This document shows, in pieces, positions 52,059 through 64,000 of a DNA stretch of 64,000 nucleotides; the stretch's first letter is position 1; each line of letters opens with the position of its first letter. Under the pieces are notes generated by a model that worked only from the letters and a program-made list of their open reading frames with translations, searched no databases and was not told the origin of the DNA. Made by a program: the position numbers and the translations under genes. This DNA comes from a virus, in IMG/VR virus record IMGVR_UViG_3300023179_000033, positions 54,246 through 118,245 of that record. The stretch is one strand, 5' to 3'.

Positions 52059-52739
52059 TTAATATAAATCTATATCTCCATTATATAAATGTTTTTTAAC
52101 TTTAAAAATAATAATCTTTTTAATATTTTTGATTTGTTTATATCCAGCTATTCTATTCTTTTCACTAGTTCTATATCCCATAAGTTTCGCAGTTTGTTCT
52201 TCATCTTTACCTTCGATGTAAAGATATTGATAAACTTTCCATTCTATTGGTTTTAAGACTTTTTGCATTTTAATATGAATATTATTCGCTGTTTTCTCTA
52301 AATTAAAATGATCCATTGGCATATCATTAATTTCTTGAGAATGATTTTCAATGCTAAGAGTTAATTTTGTATCATGCGCGTTCTTTTTGCTTTTTTCCCA
52401 ATTTGCATATAGTGGACAAGCATTACATTGATTTGTGTAAATTGCACATCCATCTTCGCCTTCTGCAGCTGCACATTTAAGACATGGACGAGTAAAATTA
52501 CTATAATTATTTCTTATTAAATTTTTAATTTGATTACTAATGATACGATTAACCCAAGGAGCTAATGGTTTCTTGTGGTCATAAAGATGCCATTTCTTAT
52601 GAATATGGATTCTTAATATCTGTGCGACATCATGAAAATCCATCCAATTGATGGCAGTCAAATTCCACTTATTTTTTCTTTTAATTATCTCGGAATCTAT
52701 GACATCAATTAGGCTTTCAAAAGAAGGCTTTTTAGCCAT
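52059..52739 (-). CDS. Phage RNA polymerase sigma factor (sigma70/ECF-like) with Cys-rich insert
   Basis: Region 2-like DVAQILRIHIHKKWHLYD..WVNRIISNQIKNLIR; region 4-like LKPIEWKVY..EGKDEEQTAKLMG; insert PCLKC..C..QCNAC. Confidence 0.7.
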   Translation of the reverse strand: MAKKPSFESLIDVIDSEIIKRKNKWNLTAINWMDFHDVAQILRIHIHKKWHLYDHKKPLAPWVNRIISNQIKNLIRNNYSNFTRPCLKCAAAEGEDGCAIYTNQCNACPLYANWEKSKKNAHDTKLTLSIENHSQEINDMPMDHFNLEKTANNIHIKMQKVLKPIEWKVYQYLYIEGKDEEQTAKLMGYRTSEKNRIAGYKQIKNIKKIIIFKVKKHLYNGDIDLY

Positions 52740-53172
52740 CTCTTGACCCTCTAGATCTTCCTCTTATTGAGCCAGCTTCTTTCTTGAAATCTTCCAAGAA
52801 TTTTTTCCTCTGTTCTGCCATTTGACTTTTTGTTAATTTTTTACTTTCAATTCTTTCTTTTTTTGCGCTAGTTTTTGCGCTTCCAACAATATCGCCAATT
52901 TTAGTTTTTTGTTTTTGAACTTGAAATTGATCTATCTCAACATCTAATCTTCTAATTGACGGAACTTTGTTTACTGTGCTAATATCATCTTCGGGATCAT
53001 CAAAATCATCATCTACTTCAACATCTATTGGTTTAGTTGTTGTTGGTTTTTGATATAAAGATTTATTAACTACTGTATTATCAAAAGATTTGCCACAATT
53101 ACTACAAAATTTAGGTTTAGAAACTGAATAATTTGTAGGACTACCACATTCTGTACAATATATTTTAAGCAT
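52732..53172 (-). CDS. Zinc-ribbon protein
   Basis: YCTECG..KPKFCSNCGKSF. Confidence 0.7.
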   Translation of the reverse strand: MLKIYCTECGSPTNYSVSKPKFCSNCGKSFDNTVVNKSLYQKPTTTKPIDVEVDDDFDDPEDDISTVNKVPSIRRLDVEIDQFQVQKQKTKIGDIVGSAKTSAKKERIESKKLTKSQMAEQRKKFLEDFKKEAGSIRGRSRGSRDG

Positions 53173-53987: not shown

Positions 53988-54626
53988 GTGGCATTTCTAA
54001 ACGCTAATATACCTCCAATTGAATGTTATGTAAGAGGAAATTATCTACGAAATCAAAAGGATAGTCATGAAAAATATTTTGCTTGTATTGTTTTTGGCGT
54101 TTCTTCTCTACCAAATAGATCTCCTTTATTTCATTTTATAATGCAAGATGGTGGGCTATGGTGGCGCGCACCAATTAGTGCTTTTTGTACAAAAGAAGGA
54201 GCTCAAGAAGAAGATCTTCATCAATTGGTTCTTTGGGATAGTTTTAGTTATCATATAGCTGTTACTCAATTTTACGCTTTAAAAAGTGCAAAAATTCAAT
54301 ATCTTGATCGCTCTGGAAATAAAAAACTTGGAAGATATCTTTTTACATTAGATTGGGCACATGCAGAATTTAATGAAACTAATTTTGGATATAGTGAAAC
54401 TCCTAATGAACATAAGTGCGGTCATGTTATAGAATTAGATAATGGTAATTACGCTATACAACCTAATAATAGAATAAAAGTTTTTGATGCTAGTTTCGTT
54501 ACAAAACCAAACGAAATTCTCATCGAAAGAAAAGTAAATGATCATCTTTATACTGTCGAAAATAGCCCCAAATGGCATACAGAAGATAGTGATAATTTTG
54601 ATTATAAAATAAAGGAAATAAAATGA
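53988..54626 (+). CDS. Conserved phage hypothetical protein
   Basis: MAFLNANIPP..LWDSFSY..YLFTLDW..EHKCGHVIELDNGNYAIQPNNR, a pattern recalled from aquatic phages. Confidence 0.75.
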   Translation: MAFLNANIPPIECYVRGNYLRNQKDSHEKYFACIVFGVSSLPNRSPLFHFIMQDGGLWWRAPISAFCTKEGAQEEDLHQLVLWDSFSYHIAVTQFYALKSAKIQYLDRSGNKKLGRYLFTLDWAHAEFNETNFGYSETPNEHKCGHVIELDNGNYAIQPNNRIKVFDASFVTKPNEILIERKVNDHLYTVENSPKWHTEDSDNFDYKIKEIK

Positions 54627-54907: not shown

Positions 54908-56020
54908 TCCGATAAAAAATTTCCCACCTGTTGAGCTAATAATTGATTTTAGCTGAGGGTTTGGTTGTTTATCCATGCTTTTTATATAAAGTTTAATATT
55001 TTTTTGTTTTAATATCTTTTCTAAAAGATCTAAGCCCTCATATGATTCTGGATCTTGTAAATCACAAAACCAATAGATAACATCTACATTTTCTCTAGAT
55101 AGATTTTTGAACGCAAATAAAGCGTATGAATCTGTTGTTATTTGACAGCCATGAGCATACATAATCTTTGCATTATCAAAATTTTTATAAATTTCTGTTT
55201 TTAATGAATCTAGATAAGGTTGCATACTTGGTGAATTATCTAGAATAACTCCAAGTCTTTCGGCTTGAATATTATTTCCTAGTATTTTTCCTTCTCTTAA
55301 TCCTTTGCCACCTTTTCCGTTTCCTGCACCGCGACCTGTTAAACCAGATCCTTCGCCATCTAAACCATATCCATCAATACCTGATATCTTACCTTCTGTG
55401 TATAGAATATTTTTGCCAGATTTAATCTTAACTTGTGATTCTTCTGTTTTAAAATCAATTTTCTTCTTAGATAATGAAGAAGTCAAAACTGGAGGTATAC
55501 TTAAAGCAATATTATCTACAGGAACATCTATTTTTTCATTAAATTCATTAATTCCAAACGAAACAGAACTATTAGAATCATTTTCTTGTGAATTTTCAAT
55601 AGATTGAGGTTCTTCGAAAGTAATATCGTCCATTGGCGCTGAATCTGCTATAGCTTTTTCTTCTATATCTTTCTGAGATATCTCTGTATATACCCAATTT
55701 TGATTATTTTTATTTTTTGGAAATACTATATAATTTGCAGAACACACTAATACTATAACATGAATAAAAGTAGCTATTAAGATATATTTATTGAATCTTT
55801 GGCACTTGCGGCTAAAATATAAGGCTTTGGCGCGGACAAATTTCGCTAATTTATTATAAGCATAAGATATACTGTCACTTATAAGATTAGGAGTTTCCTC
55901 TGTAATAGGGATTTTATTGTAATTTTTATTATAGTTTATATCATGTTCTTGATTAGAGAAGGCTTTGTATAGAAAGCTCAAGATATAACCAAATAGAGCT
56001 AAAACAAATATTGTTGCCAT
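54899..56020 (-). CDS. Membrane-anchored protein with Gly-rich linker and vWA-like C-terminal domain
   Basis: Two hydrophobic segments; MIDAS-like LGVILDNSPSM and VIYWFCD; STGGKF end. Confidence 0.6.
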   Translation of the reverse strand: MATIFVLALFGYILSFLYKAFSNQEHDINYNKNYNKIPITEETPNLISDSISYAYNKLAKFVRAKALYFSRKCQRFNKYILIATFIHVIVLVCSANYIVFPKNKNNQNWVYTEISQKDIEEKAIADSAPMDDITFEEPQSIENSQENDSNSSVSFGINEFNEKIDVPVDNIALSIPPVLTSSLSKKKIDFKTEESQVKIKSGKNILYTEGKISGIDGYGLDGEGSGLTGRGAGNGKGGKGLREGKILGNNIQAERLGVILDNSPSMQPYLDSLKTEIYKNFDNAKIMYAHGCQITTDSYALFAFKNLSRENVDVIYWFCDLQDPESYEGLDLLEKILKQKNIKLYIKSMDKQPNPQLKSIISSTGGKFFIGLN

Positions 56021-56309
56021 AGTATATACTTATACTATACCACAGATATATATAAAAAACAACTAAATCAAAAAGGGTTCTTAATAAAAATAGCCCCCCG
56101 GATTTTTTAGCCTTGAAGATATTTTGAATTTAAATTCTTTTATATAGATTTAGAAAAAGGGGGGGGTATAGGTAAGGATATATAGATAAATAGTATTATA
56201 TTATTGGGGAGAATGATGTTAATACCCCCACGATCCTATTATCGGTTTCGGAGGCTCACATTTTTCAAAAATGGGGGGTCATTTTTCCAAATAATTTTTG
56301 TAGGCTTCT

Positions 56310-56336
56310 GTAAGTCTTTGATAATCAATGAAATTT
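56310..56336. repeat. Single 27-bp palindromic site P1
   Basis: GTAAGTCTTTGA-TAA-TCAATGAAATTT. Confidence 0.7.
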
Positions 56337-56352
56337 AAATGCAAAAAATCCC

Positions 56353-56386
56353 TTGCAGAATCCCTAATCTGTGATAGATTAGCTCT
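56353..56386 (+). promoter_or_regulatory. Early leaderless promoter
   Basis: TTGCAG-N16(..TGA)-TAGATT-N6-ATG. Confidence 0.7.
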
Positions 56387-56542
56387 ATGAGAAAGAAATT
56401 AAGCAAATACGAACAACTGATCGCAAACCTCGACAAAGCGGCTCAAGACCTCAAGAATGCATCGGCTCACGCTGTGGCAACCCTTGAAGCTCACGCCAAG
56501 AAGATTGAGGAAATCAACCAGAAGTATGCAGAGACCAAATAA
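56387..56542 (+). CDS. Small coiled-coil protein (51 aa)
   Basis: MRKKLSKYEQLIANLDKAAQDLKNASAHAVATLEAHAKKIEEINQKYAETK, directly after the promoter. Confidence 0.7.
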   Translation: MRKKLSKYEQLIANLDKAAQDLKNASAHAVATLEAHAKKIEEINQKYAETK

Positions 56543-56613
56543 TGAACATCCTTGGCCTCACCATCATCTGCCTCATCATCGGTGTCATCGGTATGGCTAC
56601 CGCTAAAAATTAA
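56542..56613 (+). CDS. 23-aa hydrophobic peptide
   Basis: MNILGLTIICLIIGVIGMATAKN; TAATG coupling to the upstream gene. Confidence 0.5.
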   Translation: MNILGLTIICLIIGVIGMATAKN

Positions 56614-56616
56614 CGC

Positions 56617-56651
56617 TTGACGAAACACCAACCAAAGGACAATATAGACCT
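56617..56651 (+). promoter_or_regulatory. Early leaderless promoter
   Basis: TTGACG-N17-CAATAT-N6-ATG. Confidence 0.6.
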
Positions 56652-56759
56652 ATGAAACAAAACACTAACCTAATCGCTGAACTAATCGGAGCCGTTGGTC
56701 TTATCATCTACGGCTTCTGGATGATTGCAATCCTCGCAAAGAATACTTGCAACCTCTAA
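56652..56759 (+). CDS. 35-aa single-TM peptide
   Basis: MKQNTNLIAELIGAVGLIIYGFWMIAILAKNTCNL. Confidence 0.55.
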   Translation: MKQNTNLIAELIGAVGLIIYGFWMIAILAKNTCNL

Positions 56760-56782
56760 ACCAAAAGGATAATATAGACCAA
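56747..56782 (+). promoter_or_regulatory. Early leaderless promoter
   Basis: TTGCAA-N17-TAATAT-N7-ATG. Confidence 0.65.
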
Positions 56783-57202
56783 ATGAAAAACCAAATCACC
56801 ATCACAACTCAACCCTTCGGCAACACTACCGCTTTCCTCTTGGAAGGCGATAAGAAGCAAATCGAGACATTCCACAACGCTATGTATAACTACTCGGCAA
56901 CCAATGGCGAGTTGCACGATATGGGCAACGGCAAAGCGTTTTACTTCTACGCACAGCCCGAAGCTGTGCTGGAAGCTATGACCAAAGTGGCTCTCTATGC
57001 TCTATGCAATAAGATTAAAGCAAAGGGCTTGAAAGGTGGACTCCTTAACCTTGCAAAGCAAAAGGCACAGGCAAAGTTCGATGCGTTCAAAGAGGGACGC
57101 TTCCTTCGCACAGCTATCAGCACAGACACATTCAACCTCGGAAGCATCACCGCAGAGAAGCCTAGTGACTACTGCGGTGCTATCAGTAGCGGGAGAGACT
57201 AA
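56783..57202 (+). CDS. Hypothetical protein, paralog of 60172-60561
   Basis: Start ATG 56783; shares A(F/Y)LLE.D..F.NA.YN...TN..L.D.G.GKAFYFYA.PE. Confidence 0.75.
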   Translation: MKNQITITTQPFGNTTAFLLEGDKKQIETFHNAMYNYSATNGELHDMGNGKAFYFYAQPEAVLEAMTKVALYALCNKIKAKGLKGGLLNLAKQKAQAKFDAFKEGRFLRTAISTDTFNLGSITAEKPSDYCGAISSGRD

Positions 57203-57579
57203 TGACCGCAGAGATACTTGTCATAGCTTTGACGCTCCTTGGTGAAGCAAGGGGCGAAGGGATAGAAGGTATGGCGGGCGTTGCGTCTGTCATTCAGACA
57301 AGAGCCATCGAGCGAAAGCAAACGCCCACACAAGTCTGCCTTGCACCAAAGCAATTCAGCTTCTGGAATGGCGGAGTGAGTGAAGCACAGAAGCGTAAGT
57401 TGTTGGCTAATCCTCAAGCGAAGAACGCTCTGCATCTTGCAAAACTTGTAGCAGAGAAAAGAATGCCCGATGTTGTAAATGGTGCAAATCACTATCACAC
57501 TTTCCAAGTGTCGCCCAAGTGGTCAAAGGGTAAGCGGATAGTTGCAACAATTCGCAACCACAAGTTTTATCGTTTGTGA
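57202..57579 (+). CDS. Cell wall hydrolase, SleB/Hydrolase_2 family
   Basis: TLLGEARGEG..VASVI..QFSFWN..GANHYH..PKW..IRNHKFY. Confidence 0.88.
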   Translation: MTAEILVIALTLLGEARGEGIEGMAGVASVIQTRAIERKQTPTQVCLAPKQFSFWNGGVSEAQKRKLLANPQAKNALHLAKLVAEKRMPDVVNGANHYHTFQVSPKWSKGKRIVATIRNHKFYRL

Positions 57580-57583
57580 ATCT

Positions 57584-57660
57584 GTAAGTCGTTAAGCATC
57601 AACGAGTTACGACGGGGCGGCGGGCGTTCATCTGTAAGTCGTTGATAATCAACATCCTGA
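57584..57660 (+). repeat. 77-bp paired-palindrome element P2
   Basis: GTAAGTCGTTAA-GCA-TCAACGAGTTAC + 23 bp (gacggggcgGCGGgcgttcatct) + GTAAGTCGTTGA-TAA-TCAACATCCTGA. Confidence 0.85.
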
Positions 57661-57736
57661 TCTTGCAACAAAACCTGAACGAAAGCAAAAGATCCAAACC
57701 GATCTTTGGACAAAACCTGATGGAATGCAAAAGATC
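57659..57736. repeat. Two 36-bp direct repeats, each bounded by GATCTT...AAGATC
   Basis: 57659-57694 and 57701-57736; shared ACAAAACCTGA and GCAAAAGATC. Confidence 0.8.
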
Positions 57737-57812
57737 TAAATCATTCAACATCAATAAGTTACATAAGAAACCCTGCGCGCCTTCTGTAACTCGTTATCAA
57801 TCAATGAAATTT
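57736..57812 (-). repeat. 77-bp paired-palindrome element P3
   Basis: CTAAATCATTCA-ACA-TCAATAAGTTAC + 23 bp (ataagaaaccCTGCgcgccttct) + GTAACTCGTTAT-CAA-TCAATGAAATTT. Confidence 0.8.
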
Positions 57813-57827
57813 AAATGAAAAAATCTC

Positions 57828-57861
57828 TTGCTTTTTTTCTGCGTTGTGATAAATTAAATCT
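57828..57861 (+). promoter_or_regulatory. Early leaderless promoter
   Basis: TTGCTT-N16(..TGA)-TAAATT-N6-ATG. Confidence 0.65.
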
Positions 57862-57987
57862 ATGAAAGATAAAAACACAATCGAAAACAAAATCAAAATC
57901 ATAACCAATACAAATGCAGACCTCCAAGCTTCTATCGAAAGGCTTAAAAAACTTCTGGATGCAATCGTAATTAAGGAGATCAAATAA
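57862..57987 (+). CDS. 41-aa helical peptide
   Basis: MKDKNTIENKIKIITNTNADLQASIERLKKLLDAIVIKEIK; TAATG coupling to the next gene. Confidence 0.6.
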   Translation: MKDKNTIENKIKIITNTNADLQASIERLKKLLDAIVIKEIK

Positions 57988-58169
57988 TGAACTTAAATCA
58001 ATTCGAAGAATTACTGAAAAATCACGACTGGTCTTATGCTATGAGCGATGACTCTTACTACTATCGCAGAGGACAGCAACAATGGTTTGAAATCCGTGAT
58101 GCCATTGAAAAAAATGGTGAAGAGTTTCAGAAACTCTATGACCAATATAATTCCAAGTTTGGTGTTTGA
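57987..58169 (+). CDS. Hypothetical protein (HDW.Y..SDD motif)
   Basis: LKNHDWSYAMSDDSYYYRRG; SD AAGGAG upstream. Confidence 0.75.
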   Translation: MNLNQFEELLKNHDWSYAMSDDSYYYRRGQQQWFEIRDAIEKNGEEFQKLYDQYNSKFGV

Positions 58170-58200
58170 CAAAATCAACAAAAGGAGATAAAGTAAACCT
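58166..58200 (+). promoter_or_regulatory. Early leaderless promoter
   Basis: TTGACA-N17-TAAAGT-N6-ATG. Confidence 0.65.
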
Positions 58201-58317
58201 ATGAGAAACTACAAAAGCGAAGATCGTTTTATGGCGGTCTTTTTAACTGGCGTAATCGTTTACGGATTCGGGATGCTCTACTATGTGTCCTCGATCATCG
58301 GAGGAGTGGTTAAATGA
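58201..58317 (+). CDS. 38-aa single-TM peptide
   Basis: MRNYKSEDRFMAVFLTGVIVYGFGMLYYVSSIIGGVVK; ATGA coupling to the next gene. Confidence 0.6.
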   Translation: MRNYKSEDRFMAVFLTGVIVYGFGMLYYVSSIIGGVVK

Positions 58318-58688
58318 TTCGGGCTATCCTCATCGATCCATTCACCGAAACCGTGTCACAGGTAACTCTGGTGGACACTAAACTAAAAACCATCTACAAC
58401 TTGCTAGGTTGTGACCTCATCACCATCACCTCGGCTTTTGGTGCTGATATGGTTCTTGACGATGAGGGCTTGTTAAAAGATTCAACCTCTCAAAGATACT
58501 TCAAAATTGGAATTGATTCTCAACCTTACGCTGGCAAAGCGTTGTTGGTTGGTTCAGATGTCGAAGGAAACTTTGCATCTCTCGAAAAAAATATCACAAC
58601 TGAAAAAGTTTTTGAGAAAATAATCTTTTTCAAACCTTCAGAAAATCATCTCGAAGAATCCCGAGAAATAAAGTTCATTCCATTCTGA
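58314..58688 (+). CDS. DUF3846-like protein
   Basis: RAILIDP..IYNLLGCDLI..LDDEGLLK..PYAGKALLVG.D.EG. Confidence 0.7.
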   Translation: MIRAILIDPFTETVSQVTLVDTKLKTIYNLLGCDLITITSAFGADMVLDDEGLLKDSTSQRYFKIGIDSQPYAGKALLVGSDVEGNFASLEKNITTEKVFEKIIFFKPSENHLEESREIKFIPF

Positions 58689-58699
58689 ACTCTTCCTTT

Positions 58700-58776
58700 G
58701 TAAGTTGTTTAACATCAACGACTTACAAAAGCGCCCCTGCCGCGCATGCGTAACTCTTTGATACTCAACGCTTTAT
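58700..58776 (-). repeat. 77-bp paired-palindrome element P4
   Basis: GTAAGTTGTTTA-ACA-TCAACGACTTAC + 23 bp (aaaagcgcccCTGCcgcgcatgc) + GTAACTCTTTGA-TAC-TCAACGCTTTAT. Confidence 0.85.
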
Positions 58777-58840
58777 CTCATGATAAAATCTAATAACAAA
58801 ATAAGAAAATCTTCTACCTAAAAAAATCTAAAAAAATCAC

Positions 58841-58874
58841 TTGCAAAAATCCTAAAGTGTGATAGATTATAGGT
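58841..58874 (+). promoter_or_regulatory. Early leaderless promoter
   Basis: TTGCAA-N16(..TGA)-TAGATT-N6-ATG. Confidence 0.7.
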
Positions 58875-59045
58875 ATGAAAGATAAGTTAGAAAAACTAAA
58901 AAACCAAATCGAAAAAACCTCGATTGAACTCTCTGCTCTAGAGAAAAAAATTGAAGAATCTCACAAAGAAATTTTAAAAGCTTTGTCGCAACTCGTTGAT
59001 GGTCAACGAAATTTAAATGGAGAAAATAATTTGACTTTTCGCTGA
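58875..59045 (+). CDS. 56-aa coiled-coil peptide
   Basis: MKDKLEKLKNQIEKTSIELSALEKKIEESHKEILKALSQLVDGQRNLNGENNLTFR. Confidence 0.6.
   Translation: MKDKLEKLKNQIEKTSIELSALEKKIEESHKEILKALSQLVDGQRNLNGENNLTFR
58988..59014. repeat. Single 27-bp palindromic site P5
   Basis: GCAACTCGTTGA-TGG-TCAACGAAATTT, followed by AAATG as in P1 and P3. Confidence 0.7.
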
Positions 59046-59064
59046 AATGTGATAAATTAAAGGT
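59031..59064 (+). promoter_or_regulatory. Early leaderless promoter
   Basis: TTGACT-N16(..TGA)-TAAATT-N6-ATG (ATG of the 14-aa mini-ORF 59065-59109). Confidence 0.7.
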
Positions 59065-59105
59065 ATGAAAGATAAGAAAGAAAACAAGAAAGGTAATAAA
59101 AGAAA

Positions 59106-59375
59106 ATGAGTCATAGAATGATAAATTGGAACTATCAGCGTAGGCTGATGCGTGAAACGATGCGTAAGGCATCAAGCGAAGTAGATGCTTCTAAAGTCTA
59201 CCCGAAAACCGAAACCTTCTTCGGTGATGTTTACTCGTATGAAGGAGTTTTAGTAAAACTCGTTTACAAAACGACAGCAGAAACCGCTGTCGCTGAAATC
59301 CTCGAAGGTGAGGATAAAGGTAAGACCACAACGATCTACCTTAACAAAGCAAAATTCATTGAGAAAAAGTCATAA
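59106..59375 (+). CDS. Hypothetical protein (89 aa)
   Basis: Coupled by ATGA to the upstream mini-ORF; stop TAA lies within P6. Confidence 0.65.
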   Translation: MSHRMINWNYQRRLMRETMRKASSEVDASKVYPKTETFFGDVYSYEGVLVKLVYKTTAETAVAEILEGEDKGKTTTIYLNKAKFIEKKS

Positions 59376-59398
59376 GTCGTTGAGAATCAATGCAAAAT
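59372..59398. repeat. Single 27-bp palindromic site P6
   Basis: ATAAGTCGTTGA-GAA-TCAATGCAAAAT. Confidence 0.65.
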
Positions 59399-59403
59399 AA
59401 AAT

Positions 59404-59437
59404 TTGACAAAATCAAAAAATCTGATAGGATAAAAGT
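59404..59437 (+). promoter_or_regulatory. Early leaderless promoter
   Basis: TTGACA-N16(..TGA)-TAGGAT-N6-ATG. Confidence 0.75.
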
Positions 59438-59728
59438 ATGAAAGATAAGAACAAAGCAATCAAACCCGAAATCGAAACCTTCTACCTCTTGACCAATGAC
59501 AGGACGAAAACCCCTTGGCTTCAACCCGAAGAAATCCTTTATGTGAAAGACGAAAACACCTTCATCAAAATCAGCGTGAGCCAAGGTGCGGGATATTCCT
59601 CTCGCTGGGATTGGGCAACCGAAAACGCTGTGACCATTACGAAACTCGCAACGAATAAGCATCTCTTGGATAAACTCAATCTCTCGGTTGAAATTGGTAG
59701 AGACATCGCCAAGGCAGAAGGAGTTTAA
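59438..59728 (+). CDS. Hypothetical protein (96 aa)
   Basis: ORF begins exactly at the predicted +1. Confidence 0.7.
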   Translation: MKDKNKAIKPEIETFYLLTNDRTKTPWLQPEEILYVKDENTFIKISVSQGAGYSSRWDWATENAVTITKLATNKHLLDKLNLSVEIGRDIAKAEGV

Positions 59729-59729
59729 T

Positions 59730-59924
59730 ATGGACTTAACAAACAGCGTTCAAAGGTTAAAAGAAGAAATCTACTATGGGAGCGAAGCTCTCCAAAGTTT
59801 AAGTCGAGCAATCCAAATTGCTAAAGATAAAAAACTAAATCGAAACTACTCTATCCCTGACCATATGTGGCCTAGCATAGAAGCAGAGATTGAAGAAGAA
59901 GCTAGCGAATTTCAATACGAATGA
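59730..59924 (+). CDS. Hypothetical protein (64 aa, acidic C-terminus)
   Basis: ATG 59730 with SD AAGGAG; MDLTNSVQRL..EAEIEEEASEFQYE. Confidence 0.65.
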   Translation: MDLTNSVQRLKEEIYYGSEALQSLSRAIQIAKDKKLNRNYSIPDHMWPSIEAEIEEEASEFQYE

Positions 59925-60058
59925 AAAAAATCCTTTTCAAAATAAATAAAAAAACTTTTCGACTCGCAATTTCTCACGGCAATAAGAAAAACTTCTTGAC
60001 AGAAAAATTTTTCTACTACATCTCTGCTGGATGCTTGCATTTACGAGACCTGCTGTAA
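59921..60058 (+). CDS. 45-aa basic peptide
   Basis: ATGA coupling; MKKILFKINKKTFRLAISHGNKKNFLTEKFFYYISAGCLHLRDLL; stop TAA lies in the first arm of P7. Confidence 0.5.
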   Translation: MKKILFKINKKTFRLAISHGNKKNFLTEKFFYYISAGCLHLRDLL

Positions 60059-60131
60059 GTAGTTAAACATCAACGACTTACGACGGCGGCGCAGCGCCCC
60101 CCGCGCAAGTGCTTGACCATCAACGGCTTAC
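60055..60131 (+). repeat. 77-bp paired-palindrome element P7
   Basis: GTAAGTAGTTAA-ACA-TCAACGACTTAC + 23 bp (gacggcggcGCAGcgccccccgc) + GCAAGTGCTTGA-CCA-TCAACGGCTTAC. Confidence 0.88.
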
Positions 60132-60137
60132 AAAAAC

Positions 60138-60171
60138 TTGACAAAAATAAAAAATCTGATATCCTTTTTTT
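60138..60171 (+). promoter_or_regulatory. Early leaderless promoter
   Basis: TTGACA-N16(..TGA)-TATCCT-N6-ATG. Confidence 0.7.
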
Positions 60172-60561
60172 ATGCAAAACAAAATAAAAATCTATGCTCA
60201 ACCAAATGGAAGGTACAATGCGTATTTATTAGAGGCTGATTTCATATCTGCTGAAAGATTTTATAATGCTATTTATAATTTTGGTGGAACCAATTACAAA
60301 TTACAAGATCGTGGAAGTGGCAAAGCATTTTACTTTTATGCAGAGCCAGAAAAATTTCGCAGAGCATTATCTTTCGCTCTTTCAAACAATCTTGAATCGT
60401 GTCTTAGCGAAGGCGATTGGAACCTTCACGCCGAAGCCTTGGCAGACCAAATCATTTCAGAAATAAAACCAGCAATCTTCATAAGTGCTTATCATAGAAA
60501 GAGATACTTTTTTGATAAATCTCTTGACGAATCTGAAAAAACTGATAGGATAACAATATGA
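60172..60561 (+). CDS. Hypothetical protein, paralog of 56783-57202
   Basis: AYLLEADF..FYNAIYNFGGTNYKLQDRGSGKAFYFYAEPE. Confidence 0.75.
   Translation: MQNKIKIYAQPNGRYNAYLLEADFISAERFYNAIYNFGGTNYKLQDRGSGKAFYFYAEPEKFRRALSFALSNNLESCLSEGDWNLHAEALADQIISEIKPAIFISAYHRKRYFFDKSLDESEKTDRITI
60524..60557 (+). promoter_or_regulatory. Early leaderless promoter
   Basis: TTGACG-N16(..TGA)-TAGGAT-N6-ATG. Confidence 0.7.
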
Positions 60562-60722
60562 CAAACGAAATCACCTACCTTGCCTCGATTAACTGCGTTG
60601 AAGCCTATGCTGATGCGGAAGCATTCTTCGACTACATTAACTCCGCAGATACCATCAACGAGATGCTCGACAAGATGGCTCCGAGCTACGACGAAACCGA
60701 TACCATCGTGGAGGTCAAATAA
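60558..60722 (+). CDS. 54-aa acidic protein
   Basis: MTNEITYLASINCVEAYADAEAFFDYINSADTINEMLDKMAPSYDETDTIVEVK. Confidence 0.65.
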   Translation: MTNEITYLASINCVEAYADAEAFFDYINSADTINEMLDKMAPSYDETDTIVEVK

Positions 60723-60723
60723 T

Positions 60724-61008
60724 ATGGACTACAAATTCGAACTGCAAAAGTGGATGAGTGAGCATATGCTGACTCCGCTGGATGTGCGCGACATCCTTAA
60801 CGAAATTCGTAAGGAGCGCGAAGACGAGCGCATCCTCGAATCTTCTCAATCTGAATCCGATCTCTCGGATGTGAACGAATCTATGGATGGCGACTTTGAT
60901 TCTGCTATGGCCTCTGCTGGTCACGGAACTGACGAGGATTACAATGGCGGATGTTACCAAATGGAGGATTTTGGTTGGGCTGGTGATCCAGAAATCTGTG
61001 GAGAATAA
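60724..61008 (+). CDS. 94-aa highly acidic protein
   Basis: Start ATG 60724; ..ESMDGDFDSAMASAGHGTDEDY.. Confidence 0.7.
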   Translation: MDYKFELQKWMSEHMLTPLDVRDILNEIRKEREDERILESSQSESDLSDVNESMDGDFDSAMASAGHGTDEDYNGGCYQMEDFGWAGDPEICGE

Positions 61009-61010
61009 TT

Positions 61011-61124
61011 ATGGAAAAATATATGCTTGCAATCGCAGGGCTTGGAATTTTTTTCCTTGCTCTCGCTTCATTAGAAACCTTTGTCAACTTTCTCATCTGG
61101 CTTTGGGAGCGTAAGCGTAAGTAG
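61011..61124 (+). CDS. 37-aa single-TM peptide
   Basis: MEKYMLAIAGLGIFFLALASLETFVNFLIWLWERKRK; SD GGAG; stop TAG lies within P8. Confidence 0.55.
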   Translation: MEKYMLAIAGLGIFFLALASLETFVNFLIWLWERKRK

Positions 61125-61193
61125 TTAAGTATCAACGACTTGCGGCGGCGGGGCAGCGGCCCTTATGTAACTAATTGATAATCAAAGAGTTAC
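61117..61193 (+). repeat. 77-bp paired-palindrome element P8 at a convergent gene junction
   Basis: GTAAGTAGTTAA-GTA-TCAACGACTTGC + 23 bp (ggcggcgggGCAGcggcccttat) + GTAACTAATTGA-TAA-TCAAAGAGTTAC. Confidence 0.88.
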
Positions 61194-61339
61194 ATCAAAG
61201 CTCGCCAACCTTCAAACTCTTCGTCTATTTCTTTTTGTTTTTGGACGAAATTTTTGTTTGTATCGAGTGGAGGATTATCGTTATCGCTCCACGGAAAAAA
61301 GGTTTCAAGATTTTCGTTTAATAGTTTTTCGATGTTCAC
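61190..61339 (-). CDS. 49-aa acidic protein
   Basis: GTG start with SD AAGGAG; MNIEKLLNENLETFFPWSDNDNPPLDTNKNFVQKQKEIDEEFEGWRALM; stop TAA lies in the last arm of P8. Confidence 0.55.
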   Translation of the reverse strand: MNIEKLLNENLETFFPWSDNDNPPLDTNKNFVQKQKEIDEEFEGWRALM

Positions 61340-61412
61340 TTGTTAATCTCCTTTTGAATTAAAAAGACAAACACAATAGCAAAGATTGAAATGATAAGCA
61401 TAAGATGACATC

Positions 61413-62048
61413 TTAATGCTTTTTGTAGTTAATTGCAAACTCATTTTTATGCCAACACGCACGGCACGAACCGCACTTGTTACCTTGTTTAGAAGATGGG
61501 CAATTAAACTCTCCCTTACTGCTCGCACCACTAACACAAAGCCCAAGTCTTTCTGCTAATCCAACAGGTGCGGGGCCGTTCATCATAAGAGCAGATAAAC
61601 GGATGGTAAGATTAAAGGGAACTTCACCGCCCTTTGCTATATACTCTGAAACGAAACTATACTCACGGGTAGGCAACCAAAAAGAAATATGCGGAAGGTT
61701 TTTTGCTACTTGCACAATCTTTTGAAGATGCCAAACGCCTTGCAAATCGCCCGAATCGTGCCAGCGAAAGTGAGGGTTTTTCGTTTTACCGATAAGATAG
61801 GTCATCGCATCTACCCAAAGATTGTGAGTGAGAGAAGCGAAACGCTTTTCCATCGCCGCTTGAACATTAGGGAAAACATAACGCCCCTTGAGAGCATAGC
61901 AAAAAGCACAAATGCTTCCAGCAATACTACGCATTTTCTGCCCGATAATGCAACGCTTGGCGGGCGTTGAATAAGCATATCCGGGCATCTTTGAAGGTTT
62001 TGAGAGTGTGCCAACAATCTCTTCGGCTTGTTTTTTGTTTTTGAACAT
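61413..62048 (-). CDS. Gp88-like phage protein (Cys-rich, radical-SAM-like fold suspected)
   Basis: LSKPSKMPG..C..SICAFCYA.KGRY..FRWHDSGD..WLPTRE..NLTIRLS..CGSCRACW. Confidence 0.75.
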   Translation of the reverse strand: MFKNKKQAEEIVGTLSKPSKMPGYAYSTPAKRCIIGQKMRSIAGSICAFCYALKGRYVFPNVQAAMEKRFASLTHNLWVDAMTYLIGKTKNPHFRWHDSGDLQGVWHLQKIVQVAKNLPHISFWLPTREYSFVSEYIAKGGEVPFNLTIRLSALMMNGPAPVGLAERLGLCVSGASSKGEFNCPSSKQGNKCGSCRACWHKNEFAINYKKH

Positions 62049-62082
62049 AAAATAAATGTATCACTTTTTTTTCTTGTGACAA
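62049..62082 (-). promoter_or_regulatory. Early leaderless promoter
   Basis: TTGTCA-N16(..TGA)-TACATT-N6-ATG. Confidence 0.7.
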
Positions 62083-62097
62083 GTTTTTTTTACAAAA

Positions 62098-62174
62098 ATA
62101 TCTCGTTGAATATCAACAACTTACAGACGGCGGGCAGGTTCGCTTGCGTAAGTGTTTGATGCTTAAGCAGTTAC
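62098..62174 (+). repeat. 77-bp paired-palindrome element P9
   Basis: ATATCTCGTTGA-ATA-TCAACAACTTAC + 23 bp (agacggcggGCAGgttcgcttgc) + GTAAGTGTTTGA-TGC-TTAAGCAGTTAC; the last arm encodes the ArdC end VTA-stop. Confidence 0.85.
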
Positions 62175-63002
62175 GGCTTCTTCTTCTGGAATCTCTTCGG
62201 TTTCTTTTTTGCCAAGAAAAGCGTCAAATCTTTTTTGGGCTTTGCTAGAAGCTGAGATAATAAAATTCATATCCTTCTTTAATACTTGGAGCCAGCTTGA
62301 GAGATAGCTCGCAGAATTGTTGAAACATTTTTCAGAATCAATTCCGCAGAAGTTAAGACAAAGACTCGCAAAAATCTCTGCGGTCAGTTCCTCTTTGCTA
62401 TAATTCTCTGAACCAAATCCGTTTTTAATATCATCATTGGTTACCTTGTGCATAGCGTGGCCAATCTCGTGAAACGCCGTGGAATAATACTCCTCAACGC
62501 TGTTGAAGTTTTCTTTTTCGGGCAAATCAATTTTATGTTCCTGTGGATAATAACAGGCACGGCTTCCACCATACTTAATCTTGATGATGCACTTGTTAAT
62601 CAACTTTTCTGCTTCTTCTACTGGAGAAAATTCCAGCTTCTTAACTTCGGGCTGTTTCCACTTCAGTCCCTCGATATCGCTTAAACCAAAGACTCTGTAA
62701 TAACGCATCATCGGAAAGCTTTTGGTTTCATTGTCTTTTTCAGACTTCAATAGTTTGTAATAAACTACCATATGAGACTTGGCACCAACTTTGATTCTGC
62801 CGCCAAGTTCTTTAATCTGGTTAAAGGTAAAGAAAAAATCATCCGATGAAACCATCCGAAGCAAAAATTGATTGATTCCCCGATAATTCTTTTTGGAAAC
62901 TCCGTTGCAGAGTTCAAAAACTTTCCAAGGTTTCTGCCAAGGGCACACGCCTTTGTTGAGGGCTTCAATGAATTTTTCTGTGATAATCTCGTTTACTTTC
63001 AT
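62163..63002 (-). CDS. ardC: ArdC-family ssDNA-binding antirestriction protein (DUF1738 plus zincin-like domain)
   Basis: PWQKPW..YRGINQFLL..FTFNQIKELGG..RACYYP..YYSTAFHEIGH..YSKEELTAEI..SASYLSSWL. Confidence 0.9.
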   Translation of the reverse strand: MKVNEIITEKFIEALNKGVCPWQKPWKVFELCNGVSKKNYRGINQFLLRMVSSDDFFFTFNQIKELGGRIKVGAKSHMVVYYKLLKSEKDNETKSFPMMRYYRVFGLSDIEGLKWKQPEVKKLEFSPVEEAEKLINKCIIKIKYGGSRACYYPQEHKIDLPEKENFNSVEEYYSTAFHEIGHAMHKVTNDDIKNGFGSENYSKEELTAEIFASLCLNFCGIDSEKCFNNSASYLSSWLQVLKKDMNFIISASSKAQKRFDAFLGKKETEEIPEEEAVTA

Positions 63003-63036
63003 AGGTTAAATATATCAAAATTTTTCTTTTTGTCTA
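63003..63036 (-). promoter_or_regulatory. Early leaderless promoter
   Basis: TAGACA-N16(..TGA)-TATATT-N6-ATG. Confidence 0.7.
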
Positions 63037-63041
63037 CAAAT

Positions 63042-63118
63042 AAATCTTTCTATCTATCAACAACTTACAAACGCAAGGCTGCTCTGCTTGCGTAAGTCTT
63101 TAATAATCAAAGGTTTAG
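63042..63118 (-). repeat. 77-bp paired-palindrome element P10 (first arm degenerate)
   Basis: ..TCAACAACTTAC (63057-68) + 23 bp (aaacgcaaggCTGCtctgcttgc) + GTAAGTCTTTAA-TAA-TCAAAGGTTTAG; overlaps the tRNA-Glu 3' end. Confidence 0.8.
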
Positions 63119-63187
63119 GGCTAAACGGATTCGAACCGATACACCCTCATTGAAAGCGAGGAGTCCTAACCATTAGACGATAGCCCC
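63116..63187 (-). tRNA. tRNA-Glu (TTC)
   Basis: Acceptor GGGGCTA/TAGCCCT, anticodon loop CT-TTC-AA, T-loop TTCGAAT; one T-stem mismatch; CCA not encoded. Confidence 0.88.
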
Positions 63188-63200
63188 AATATGTAGTATT

Positions 63201-63229
63201 ATTATATTAACTATTTATCTATTTATCAA
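63201..63229 (-). promoter_or_regulatory. sigma70 promoter for tRNA-Glu
   Basis: TTGATA-N17-TATAAT. Confidence 0.7.
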
Positions 63230-63271
63230 TTACTATTTGCTATTTTGTGTAATCTAATTTAGAATTTAGAA

Positions 63272-63451
63272 ATGAAACAACTCAGCGGTCTCTTAGAATC
63301 ATCTGCACTCTATAAAGAATTCCTTCGTGAACGAGAAGAAATCTTAAAACATAAATGGATTGAAAGTGAAAAAGCTGGGCGTGATGTTGGCTTTGAATGG
63401 GCTTTGCTTGATTGGAATTTTAATTATAGAAACAACTGGCGTAGTAAATAA
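63272..63451 (+). CDS. DUF4032-like small protein (59 aa, absent from the ORF track)
   Basis: SALYKEFLREREEILKHKWIESEKAGRDVGFEWALLDW; GTGTAA at 63247-52 upstream. Confidence 0.75.
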   Translation: MKQLSGLLESSALYKEFLREREEILKHKWIESEKAGRDVGFEWALLDWNFNYRNNWRSK

Positions 63452-63525
63452 TCGGGCATGCAGGATTTGAACCTGCGACATCTTGCTCCCAAAGCAAGCG
63501 CACTACCAAGCTGTGCTAATGCCCG
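63452..63525 (-). tRNA. tRNA-Pro (TGG)
   Basis: Acceptor CGGGCAT/ATGCCCG, D stem GCAC/GTGC, anticodon stem CTTGC/GCAAG with TT-TGG-GA, T arm GCAGG-TTCAAAT-CCTGC; CCA not encoded. Confidence 0.93.
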
Positions 63526-63532
63526 AAAAGTT

Positions 63533-63664
63533 TAGTTCTTCCGCTCTCTCTATTCTAGAACTAAAGAGAATATATACCCACCTTTAATTGCCTCAGACTC
63601 TGGGCATTGGGGCTTCAAGGGCTCTTATGGAGGAAGTCATCCTCACTCCTTGCGGAAAGAACTA
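63533..63664 (-). ncRNA. Candidate structured non-coding RNA (about 132 nt)
   Basis: 12-bp closing stem TAGTTCT(T)TCCGC/GCGGAAGAACTA encloses three hairpins; the predicted +1 of the upstream promoter coincides with the 5' stem. Confidence 0.6.
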
Positions 63665-63669
63665 TCTAA

Positions 63670-63697
63670 ATCTTATCATAATTTAGTTCTGCGTCAA
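63670..63697 (-). promoter_or_regulatory. sigma70-type promoter for the ncRNA candidate and tRNA-Pro
   Basis: TTGACG-N16(..TGA)-TAAGAT, same architecture as the early promoters. Confidence 0.7.
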
Positions 63698-63699
63698 AT

Positions 63700-63732
63700 A
63701 AAAAAGGCGAGATTTTTTAGGTCTCGCCCTTT
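63700..63732 (-). terminator. Rho-independent terminator
   Basis: Minus strand GGCGAGA-loop-TCTCGCC-TTTTTT. Confidence 0.7.
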
Positions 63733-63752
63733 CTATAAATATCTCTCTGTTG

Positions 63753-63980
63753 TTAAACTGGCGAGAGACCTCCAGCGATTCTATCATAACGGAACTGGCG
63801 ATGGCCGAATCCGTCACGACCAGAGAAGCACCAAGAAATGAAAAGTTTGTTTCCAGCCTTGGAGACATAATGAGTGGTAGGAACGCCAACGATGTAAGTA
63901 TAAGTCTCGGTTCCATTGTAAGGCTTATAGTTGATGATATACCGCTGTCCTAAAATAAAATAGAACAGACCCTTAATCAT
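63753..63980 (-). CDS. Small protein with WYL-like C-terminal motif
   Basis: 75 aa; WCF..HRQFRYDRI; ends just before the terminator. Confidence 0.5.
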   Translation of the reverse strand: MIKGLFYFILGQRYIINYKPYNGTETYTYIVGVPTTHYVSKAGNKLFISWCFSGRDGFGHRQFRYDRIAGGLSPV

Positions 63981-64000
63981 CTCCCACAGGGTGATGTTGT

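Follow-up and report, generated by a model that had tools for sequence, protein, structure and literature searches.

The stretch of DNA analyzed here, called the window throughout, comprises 64,000 nucleotides (positions 54,246 to 118,245) of the IMG/VR virus record IMGVR_UViG_3300023179_000033 and forms the last 64 kb of that linear, 118,245-bp record, for which CheckV estimates a completeness of 77%. Near its right end, the window contains an array of composite repeats, each of which consists in its full form of two 27-bp imperfect palindromes and a G+C-rich spacer, or core, between them. These double units and the single palindromes found among them are the subject of this report; all coordinates are those of the window. 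The phage is tailed, with a tape measure protein of 2404 aa, and among its other genes are those for a T4-type terminase, a PhoH protein, an ERCC4 nuclease and a sigma factor of its own (52059-52739, minus strand), in which Pfam detects region 2 alone. At least 544 relatives of this sigma factor are found in IMG/VR, and it marks a very large clade of uncultured phages. No close cultured relative of the phage was found. Its DNA is present in freshwater and lake metagenome runs from 12 studies, and a freshwater origin is established for this phage alone, not for the whole clade.

The G+C content is about 0.30 across most of the window and 0.37-0.42 at 56-64 kb, a stretch of small genes whose 3' limit is formed by genes for tRNA-Glu and tRNA-Pro. 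The early genes of this stretch that match protein families encode a Hydrolase_2 cell-wall hydrolase (57202-57579), a DUF3846 protein (58314-58688), a GP88-family protein (61413-62048) and an ArdC-like anti-restriction protein (62163-63002), a set that resembles the leading-region genes of conjugative elements. DUF932 is found in relatives (L008; labels of this form denote the fetched IMG/VR loci, while G001-G003 are genomes in the family set). Several early genes begin with ATGAAAGATAA; their products are small peptides (41-56 aa) that resemble coiled coils. The higher G+C content of the early region (56000-64000) may reflect a separate history or a constraint, such as the avoidance of AT-binding silencers. 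The promoters have the form TTGNNN-N16-17-(TG)nTAnnnT, with the ATG about 5-7 nt past the -10 element, and repeated early promoter cassettes are found at 56353-56389, 57829-57864, 58841-58877, 59031-59068, 59404-59440 and 60138-60174. The short distance from the -10 element to the ATG suggests that the predicted mRNAs are leaderless or nearly so.

Seven double units and three single palindromes, which a sequence-only reading of the window had described, were all recovered in place. The first double unit (57584..57660; core GCGG on the plus strand) starts 5 nt past the stop codon of the Hydrolase_2 gene, and a 75-bp module without an open reading frame (ORF; 57661..57735) separates it from the second (57736..57812; core CTGC on the plus strand). 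This module, which relatives have conserved and which changes place as one block, holds two copies of CAAAACCTGAnnGAAnGCAAAAGATC around a GATC-containing inverted sequence. The third unit (58700..58776; core CTGC on the plus strand) follows the stop codon of the DUF3846 gene, and the fourth (60055..60131; core GCAG on the plus strand) holds the TAA of the upstream ORF in its first GTAA. The fifth (61117..61193; core GCAG on the plus strand) lies between convergent gene blocks, the sixth (62098..62174; core GCAG on the plus strand) contains the stop codon of the ArdC-like gene, and the seventh (63042..63118; GCAG on the minus strand) is found between the tRNA-Glu gene and the ArdC-like gene. 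The single palindromes are located at 56310..56336, where a degenerate outer arm runs into AATGAAATTTAAATG, at 58988..59014 and at 59372..59398, which contains the stop codon of an 89-aa gene. Each site is thus found in the interval from a stop codon to the promoter that follows or, at 61117, between convergent genes, and several hold the stop codon within their (G/A)TAA.

The spacer is G+C-rich and exactly 23 bp long in all seven double units, as had been reported, and the seven spacer sequences are strongly diverged, yet without a single indel. GCAG occupies spacer positions 10-13 in six of the seven units (GCGG in 57584), on the plus strand in 60055, 61117 and 62098 and on the minus strand in 57736, 58700 and 63042, and both of the polarity groups proposed earlier were reproduced. 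A description of the spacer as a symmetric palindrome was rejected, the symmetry being limited to columns 35-41, and so was a polarity of A-type and B-type palindromes seen in the window, which is not general (154 of 222 elements are uninformative).

The array is restricted to the early region: the absence of copies from the other genes of the window, noted before, extends to the rest of the 118-kb record. With up to three mismatches, the full consensus matches at four sites, all in the region, compared to none in 100 shuffled sequences. With a half-site matrix at 14 bits or more, 17 of the 18 matches in the record fall inside a 7.2-kb region. In a palindrome scan of the whole record, 17 sites score 12-35 and just two other positions reach 10 (10.8 and 12.9), while shuffled genomes contain 1-11 positions scoring at least 10, all these scores being read with the caveat that the scoring matrix was derived from the same 17 sites. 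A search of Rfam found nothing but the two tRNAs and one chance match, blastn of the region against deposited phages gave no matches, and a near-consensus unit searched against the same phages gave one chance match (E = 0.07), the pattern being present in no deposited phage genome. In a scan of host genomes from 185,579 species, the pattern was found in only three contigs of metagenome-assembled genomes (MAGs), each 1.2-1.8 kb long. Because just these three small contigs match, the element is phage-specific and not a host repeat. The labels of the three contigs were too weak to serve as a clue to the host. A phage-encoded tmRNA in one relative (L080:3051-3472, i.e., G000:C1:17050-17471) carries an unusual 24-residue tag, AKTAKYKGHISARVSLVEETASVA, which was likewise set aside as odd and uninformative with respect to the host.

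The palindromes are double-stranded protein sites and not RNA hairpins. In a gap-free alignment of 140 oriented units from related phages, a model of two hairpins pairs 80.6% of the cells, compared to 80.0 +/- 0.3% in shuffles (15 of 500 shuffles are as high), and 40-60% of the cells are unpaired in the variable columns. A model of a single long hairpin pairs 79.9%, compared to 80.3% in shuffles (438 of 500 as high). When columns were tested across 222 unique units, the observed pairing equaled the product of the column frequencies under all four pairing schemes. Since there is no base-pair covariation, the symmetry results from a conserved 12-bp half-site, GTAASTCSTTGA. The half-site was also examined free of selection by using strong palindromes as anchors only and reading the sequence 50 bp away across the G+C-rich stretch. 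A partner was found on exactly one side of 411 of 440 anchors, and in the 314 unique partners all 12 half-site positions are informative while the three central positions are not. Together with the missing pairing covariation and the central core motif, this supports the earlier suggestion of a protein-bound, double-stranded architecture with a directional core.

The half-site resembles the binding site of integration host factor (IHF). Excerpts of PMC1874591 give the IHF consensus as WATCAANNNNTTR, in which WATCAA stands near the center of a 34-bp site and TTR follows four bases on, with two AA steps 9 bp apart and an optional A-tract (PMC1874591). Each palindrome consists of two inverted WATCAA-N4-TTR half-sites about one center, with TT and AA steps (positions 9-10 and 18-19) that are also 9 bp apart. 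All 140 aligned copies have T10 and A18, and among the 314 unselected partners T9 is kept in at least 90% and A19 in 78%. In the window, 16 of 17 palindromes have a half-site with no more than one mismatch to the IHF consensus, nine half-sites are exact, and nine of the 27 exact matches in the window lie inside a 6.8-kb region. Across the family, 654 of 888 half-sites have one mismatch or none, compared to 0.24% of background positions. The spacer-side arms of the window's palindromes fit IHF better (0.8 mismatches on average) than the outer arms (2.1), and for this reason we read the doubles as two convergent IHF-like sites with AT-rich outer halves. The minimum center-to-center distance between palindromes is 34 bp, which 12 pairs have exactly. 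At L168:5222-5375 and L209:9064-9790, palindromes 34 bp apart with a 7-bp, AT-containing spacer are found beside units spaced at 58 bp; these may be tandem units with common borders.

The distance between the two palindromes is genome-specific. In a first pattern scan with the inner arms and a forced 23-bp gap, 72 stretches were found on 61 IMG/VR contigs, many of them 100-178 kb long, and 282 of 312 short distances were 50 bp, a proportion biased by the forced gap; of these 72 loci, 28 have the window's PhoH gene and 21 its sigma gene. Relatives were next fetched by their sigma factor, of which the best 80 of at least 544 were kept, and in the closest of them the doubles are spaced at 48 bp (16 cases) or 49 bp (6) and once at 50 bp. 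A scan with a variable gap added more classes, for a total of 1,269 palindromes at 233 loci, in which the main center spacings are 42 bp (46), 48 (87), 49 (15), 50 (294), 51 (22) and 58 (65). The family's spacer classes are 13-15, 21, 22, 23, 24 and 31 bp. Among the 93 loci with at least three doubles, 79 have a single spacing for at least 80% of them, such as L199 (42 bp, 15 times), L191 (58 bp, 11 times), L163 (48 bp, 7 times) and L202 (49 bp, 8 times). The core motif also differs by lineage, being of the GGCAG/GGGAG type in this phage and its close relatives, GCGCGCCCCGCCGCGC in G001-G003 and GGCCAGGCCCGC in L237. In complete relatives the units cluster within about 15 kb (17.9-32.2 kb in G002 and 17.7-32.3 kb in G003).

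Comparison of orthologous sites reveals how the spacing changes. Six close relatives are co-linear with the window at 56-63 kb, with 66-94% nucleotide identity. The spacers of the 60055 and 62098 units, 23 bp in the window, are 21 bp at the orthologous sites of L203, L188, L084, L163 and L088 and 22 bp in L094, and the other orthologous units agree wherever they can be aligned. The edges of orthologous spacers are still alignable and their centers are different. Between L084/L085 and this phage, the proteins are 97% (TerL), 94% (ERCC4), 95% (PhoH), 95% (GP88) and 98-99% (ArdC) identical. All copies have therefore changed length together over a short evolutionary distance. This concerted change, along with the divergence of the spacers without indels, points to a trans-acting constraint on the whole unit. 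The "invariant geometry" claimed earlier thus holds inside this genome and fails across the family, where spacers range from 13 to 31 bp. Variable spacer lengths in relatives had been named as evidence against a protein-bound architecture; the lengths do differ among relatives, but they are rigid within a genome and changed in concert, and this genome-specific spacing strengthens the idea of a trans-acting reader.

Eight of the ten sites have a TTGNNN-N16-17-TGnTAnnnT promoter 20-80 bp downstream, the exceptions being 57584 and 61117. The distance from the center of the promoter-proximal palindrome to the start of the -35 element takes two values in the window. It is 30 bp at 56310 (-35 TTGCAG), at the right palindrome of the second unit (57786; TTGCTT) and at 58988 (TTGACT at 59031), and 29 bp at the left palindrome of the sixth unit (62098), which faces the minus-strand -35 element of the GP88-family gene promoter at 62082. 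It is 19 bp at 59372 (TTGACA at 59404), 20 bp at the right palindrome of the fourth unit (60105; TTGACA at 60138) and 19 bp at the left palindrome of the seventh (63042; minus-strand -35 element at 63036). The two sets of distances, 19-20 and 29-30 bp, are one helical turn apart.

The units are also the places where the early region differs among relatives. In L039, the segment 57584-58314 of the window, with two units and three small genes, is missing and the segment 59375-59896 is replaced, and gain, loss or shuffling of cassettes at units was found in comparisons with L039, L188, L161, L084, L163 and L088. The ORF-less stretch 57611-57785, which consists of a half-unit, the 75-bp module and another half-unit, varies in position: in the window, L203 and L163 it comes after the hydrolase gene, in L188 and L084 after the DUF3846 gene, and in L161 inside the 60055 unit, while L088 and L039 are without it. 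L188 has a hybrid unit in which the first palindrome is of the 58700 type while the spacer and second palindrome are of the 57584 type, a composition that places the crossover at the border between first palindrome and spacer. The cassette mosaicism is compatible with homologous and with site-specific exchange alike. In contigs from public runs that cover the region, 10 of 15 listed joints end in a unit; several of these come from relatives' contigs fitting another copy, and the joints were not counted as evidence of rearrangement.

Based on these results, we tentatively propose, with somewhat less than even confidence, that the unit is a nucleoprotein boundary element in which IHF-type bends bracket a core read by a genome-specific factor, and that it is also a recombination hot spot. 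One IHF molecule would most likely occupy each palindrome, and it would be the host's, because the phages are without an HU/IHF gene of their own (none in six records, i.e., this one and five relatives, four of them complete). A stiff, G+C-rich core would thereby be placed between two sharp bends, and the whole unit would be read by a trans-acting factor, for which a phage-encoded protein or complex reaching across the core and the two bends is the simplest candidate. The units border small, self-promoted early cassettes with genes of the ArdC-like, GP88, DUF3846 and cell-wall hydrolase types, and in this phage the promoter-proximal palindrome centers take up two positions relative to the -35 element that differ by one helical turn; a probable function of the element is therefore to shape early promoters or to insulate them. 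Being conserved repeats, the units are also the places at which related phages exchange cassettes.

Several observations weigh against this proposal. The N4 positions, which are free in the IHF consensus, are conserved in the palindromes (S-G-A-S; 0.6-1.3 bits each); Escherichia coli IHF does not require this, and another, more specific protein may be the reader. The palindromes have no A-tract, their 5' half being a mirror half-site instead. Across the family, the distance from palindrome to sigma70-like promoter shows no general peak, and a peak at 45 is the partner palindrome. Core orientation is independent of gene strand. (The gene strands near units that crude ORF calls had provided were dropped as noisy, known genes of the window being mis-called.) The spacing classes of 42, 48, 50, 51 and 58 bp have no common helical phase, which excludes a single bend geometry as the conserved function. 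If IHF alone bound each palindrome independently, the rigid, genome-specific spacing would be left unexplained, and no candidate gene for the reader was found. A 146-aa protein encoded between the PhoH and sigma genes (52732-53172, minus strand) carries a CxxC-x14-CxxC zinc ribbon at its N terminus, followed by a variable, acidic middle part and a basic tail that is conserved, and is only 41-52% identical in relatives whose neighboring PhoH and sigma proteins have about 90% identity. As a "ruler" of spacing it was rejected, as it does not sort by class: the protein of L039 (class 50) is 84% identical to that of L088 (class 48). A look for other repeats upstream of the sigma gene in L103, L096 and L128 found nothing comparable, and the contig of L103 has units elsewhere (L188).

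The strongest of the other explanations, though in our view a doubtful one, is that the units are recombination sites at which an unrecognized phage or host system cuts or exchanges strands in or beside the G+C-rich core, with IHF-type bends as accessories, as in lambda att. Recombination of this kind needs matching cores, and cores are then expected to be uniform within a genome and different between lineages. Core length and motif behave in this way, the replaced centers and alignable edges of orthologous spacers are in keeping with it, and so are the varied cassette order among close relatives, illustrated by the 75-bp module, and the hybrid unit of L188. However, no gene for an integrase (PF00589), a resolvase (PF00239) or a Y1 transposase (PF01797) was detected in this record or in four complete relatives, which extends to five records the earlier remark that the window encodes no recombinase. 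Moreover, the 13-31 bp between the two binding sites fits no known recombinase family, the sole hybrid that can be resolved crosses over at the palindrome border and not at the core center, and ordinary homologous recombination between the 27-bp arms would yield the same products. The likeness to dif and other tyrosine-recombinase sites raised by the sequence-only reading is not borne out: core sites of recombinases (dif, lox, att, res) have two arms of 11-13 bp around 6-8 or 2 bp, while here the palindrome has a 3-bp center and 13-31 bp separate one palindrome from the other. The units also differ from integron attC sites, whose single strands fold by pairing R''/L'' with L'/R' and which go with the IntI integrase, as the long-hairpin model pairs no better than shuffles and an integrase gene is missing. 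A more specific version, which we put forward as a speculation of low probability, is that large freshwater phages possess an undescribed cassette-exchange system, in which a fast-evolving, two-fold symmetric phage factor, or else a recombination machine, would read the arrangement of IHF bend, core and IHF bend, and compatibility groups would be defined by the length and motif of the core.

It is also conceivable, if rather improbable, that the units form an operator array for a phage regulator, a conserved dimer of dimers that would occupy both palindromes and turn all the early cassettes off or on at once, in which case the resemblance to IHF sites would be a by-product of the half-site. 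Such a regulator would account for the conservation of all 12 half-site positions, which exceeds the need of IHF, a rigid, genome-specific spacing suits a protein that bridges both sites, the sites adjoin early promoters in this phage, and the stoperator arrays of Cluster A mycobacteriophages provide a precedent for numerous regulator sites within one genome. However, no DNA-binding family is represented among the genes of the region, and the palindrome is unchanged where terminases are only 41-54% identical, a distance over which a phage regulator and a site that co-evolve should have drifted. A rough estimate puts the odds that a 13-nt motif matches the IHF consensus in register by chance at about 1 in 10,000.

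We consider it very unlikely that the units act in the transcript, as terminators, processing sites or 3' stabilizers in the manner of the stem-loops of promoter-early stem-loop (PeSL) elements or of repetitive extragenic palindromes (REPs). Units do follow directly after stop codons, no terminator with a GC stem and a T-run was found at the units in the window, where the cassettes have no canonical terminator between them, and contigs from an RNA library cover the units, although DNA carry-over is possible and transcription is not shown thereby. The 31-bp spacer class, and no other, contains a hairpin, GACCCC-N4-GGGGTC, that folds far better than shuffles (mean z -3.2, with 96% of 24 spacers below -1). 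In L191, L183 and L216 (e.g., L191:219-249), the loops of this hairpin are ttcg, tacg, gaag and gtag, and on the opposite strand GTTTTG follows, so that it looks like a small terminator between two palindromes. Against a function in RNA stand the lack of covariation under either hairpin model, with 40-60% of the cells unpaired in variable columns, and the independence of core polarity from gene strand. In the 15, 21, 23 and 24-bp classes, spacer folds are no more favorable than those of shuffled controls, and the seven window spacers have fold z values between -1.24 and +1.04. In relatives, canonical terminators with a GC stem and T-run are found just upstream of the unit (at least three rows), so that the role of terminator does not fall to the unit in them.

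A selfish miniature mobile element, either a miniature inverted-repeat transposable element or one like a REPIN (a REP doublet), whose uniform length would reflect recent copying, deserves hardly any weight: many copies with similar spacers do occur in some genomes (G001-G003) and doublets of fixed spacing are a feature of REPINs, but no Y1 transposase gene is present in the five records, the pattern is nearly absent from host genomes (the three short MAG contigs), the seven window spacers have diverged and yet have no indel, orthologous copies stay in place across relatives, and the palindrome consensus is conserved though family proteins are only 41-54% identical.

No described equivalent of the element was found in the literature, which agrees with the earlier reading; a literature match to the 12-mer was merely a PCR primer, and the injection-stop system of phage T5 is unrelated. 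Among known systems, PeSL cassettes of T4-type phages are similar in several respects. As described in excerpts of PMC2839356, close relatives gain, lose and reorder cassettes flanked by PeSLs, which, like the units, are composite intergenic repeats confined to a plastic early region, flank small orphan genes, lie between a stop codon and a strong sigma70-like promoter and contain G-run and C-run sequences (PMC2839356). However, a PeSL is a terminating stem-loop together with the promoter itself (PMC2839356), whereas the unit consists of two IHF-like palindromes and a core of fixed length. The unit also differs in having neither pairing covariation nor, in this phage, excess hairpin potential, and this phage, with its 2404-aa tape measure protein, is not of the T4 type.

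The bacterial interspersed mosaic element BIME-1 of E. coli, also called repetitive IHF-binding palindromic element (RIP), is likewise a three-part intergenic repeat of palindromes and an IHF site at gene 3' ends. It is described, again in excerpts, as a pair of REPs in inverted orientation that flank a linker containing an IHF site, and roles in DNA structuring and as a topological insulator have been proposed for it (PMC3333891). In the units this order is inverted, the IHF-like sites being outside and the G+C-rich part inside. REPs themselves are G+C-rich hairpins with a GTAG tag that are cut by a Y1 transposase (PMC3333891), while here no such gene was detected and the units have no pairing covariation. 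More generally, the units do not have the hairpin with maintained pairing, the spread in host chromosomes or the REP-associated tyrosine transposase (RAYT) partner that mark REPs, BIMEs and REPINs.

With canonical IHF sites such as lambda H' the palindromes share WATCAA-N4-TTR, AA/TT steps 9 bp apart and a size of about 34 bp, which is also the closest palindrome spacing, while canonical sites are asymmetric, with an A-tract in the 5' half and a free N4 (PMC1874591). In the units, by comparison, both halves carry the consensus, the N4 is conserved and the sites are paired at a genome-specific distance.

In Cluster A mycobacteriophages, each stoperator is one asymmetric site of 13-14 bp that points in the direction of transcription; stoperators occur throughout the genome and are recognized by the immunity repressor. 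They resemble the units as many copies of one protein site in intergenic DNA read by one trans-acting protein, but their size, asymmetry, orientation, genome-wide spread and repressor binding have no counterpart in the units. The present analysis adds a test of covariation, the division of the spacings into discrete classes, the finding that orthologous sites changed in concert and the minimum spacing of 34 bp.

The element is located where these phages keep their fastest-changing early genes of the anti-defense type. It combines a constant protein-binding part with a spacer that is rigid within a genome and reset in all copies at once, which is unusual, and the reset separates phages whose TerL, ERCC4, PhoH and GP88 proteins are some 95-97% identical. 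The spacing pattern therefore provides a direct handle for finding the reader factor. If IHF is the binder, lytic phages would here be using a host architectural protein in a new manner, to separate their early transcription units from one another, and if a recombination system is involved, this would explain how cassettes are shuffled without gene breakage. Should the cassette-exchange reading be true, the units would amount to a counterpart of integrons that lacks a known integrase; the sites of any one genome would all have to change length together, and anti-defense cassettes would move between co-infecting phages only via sites of the same group.

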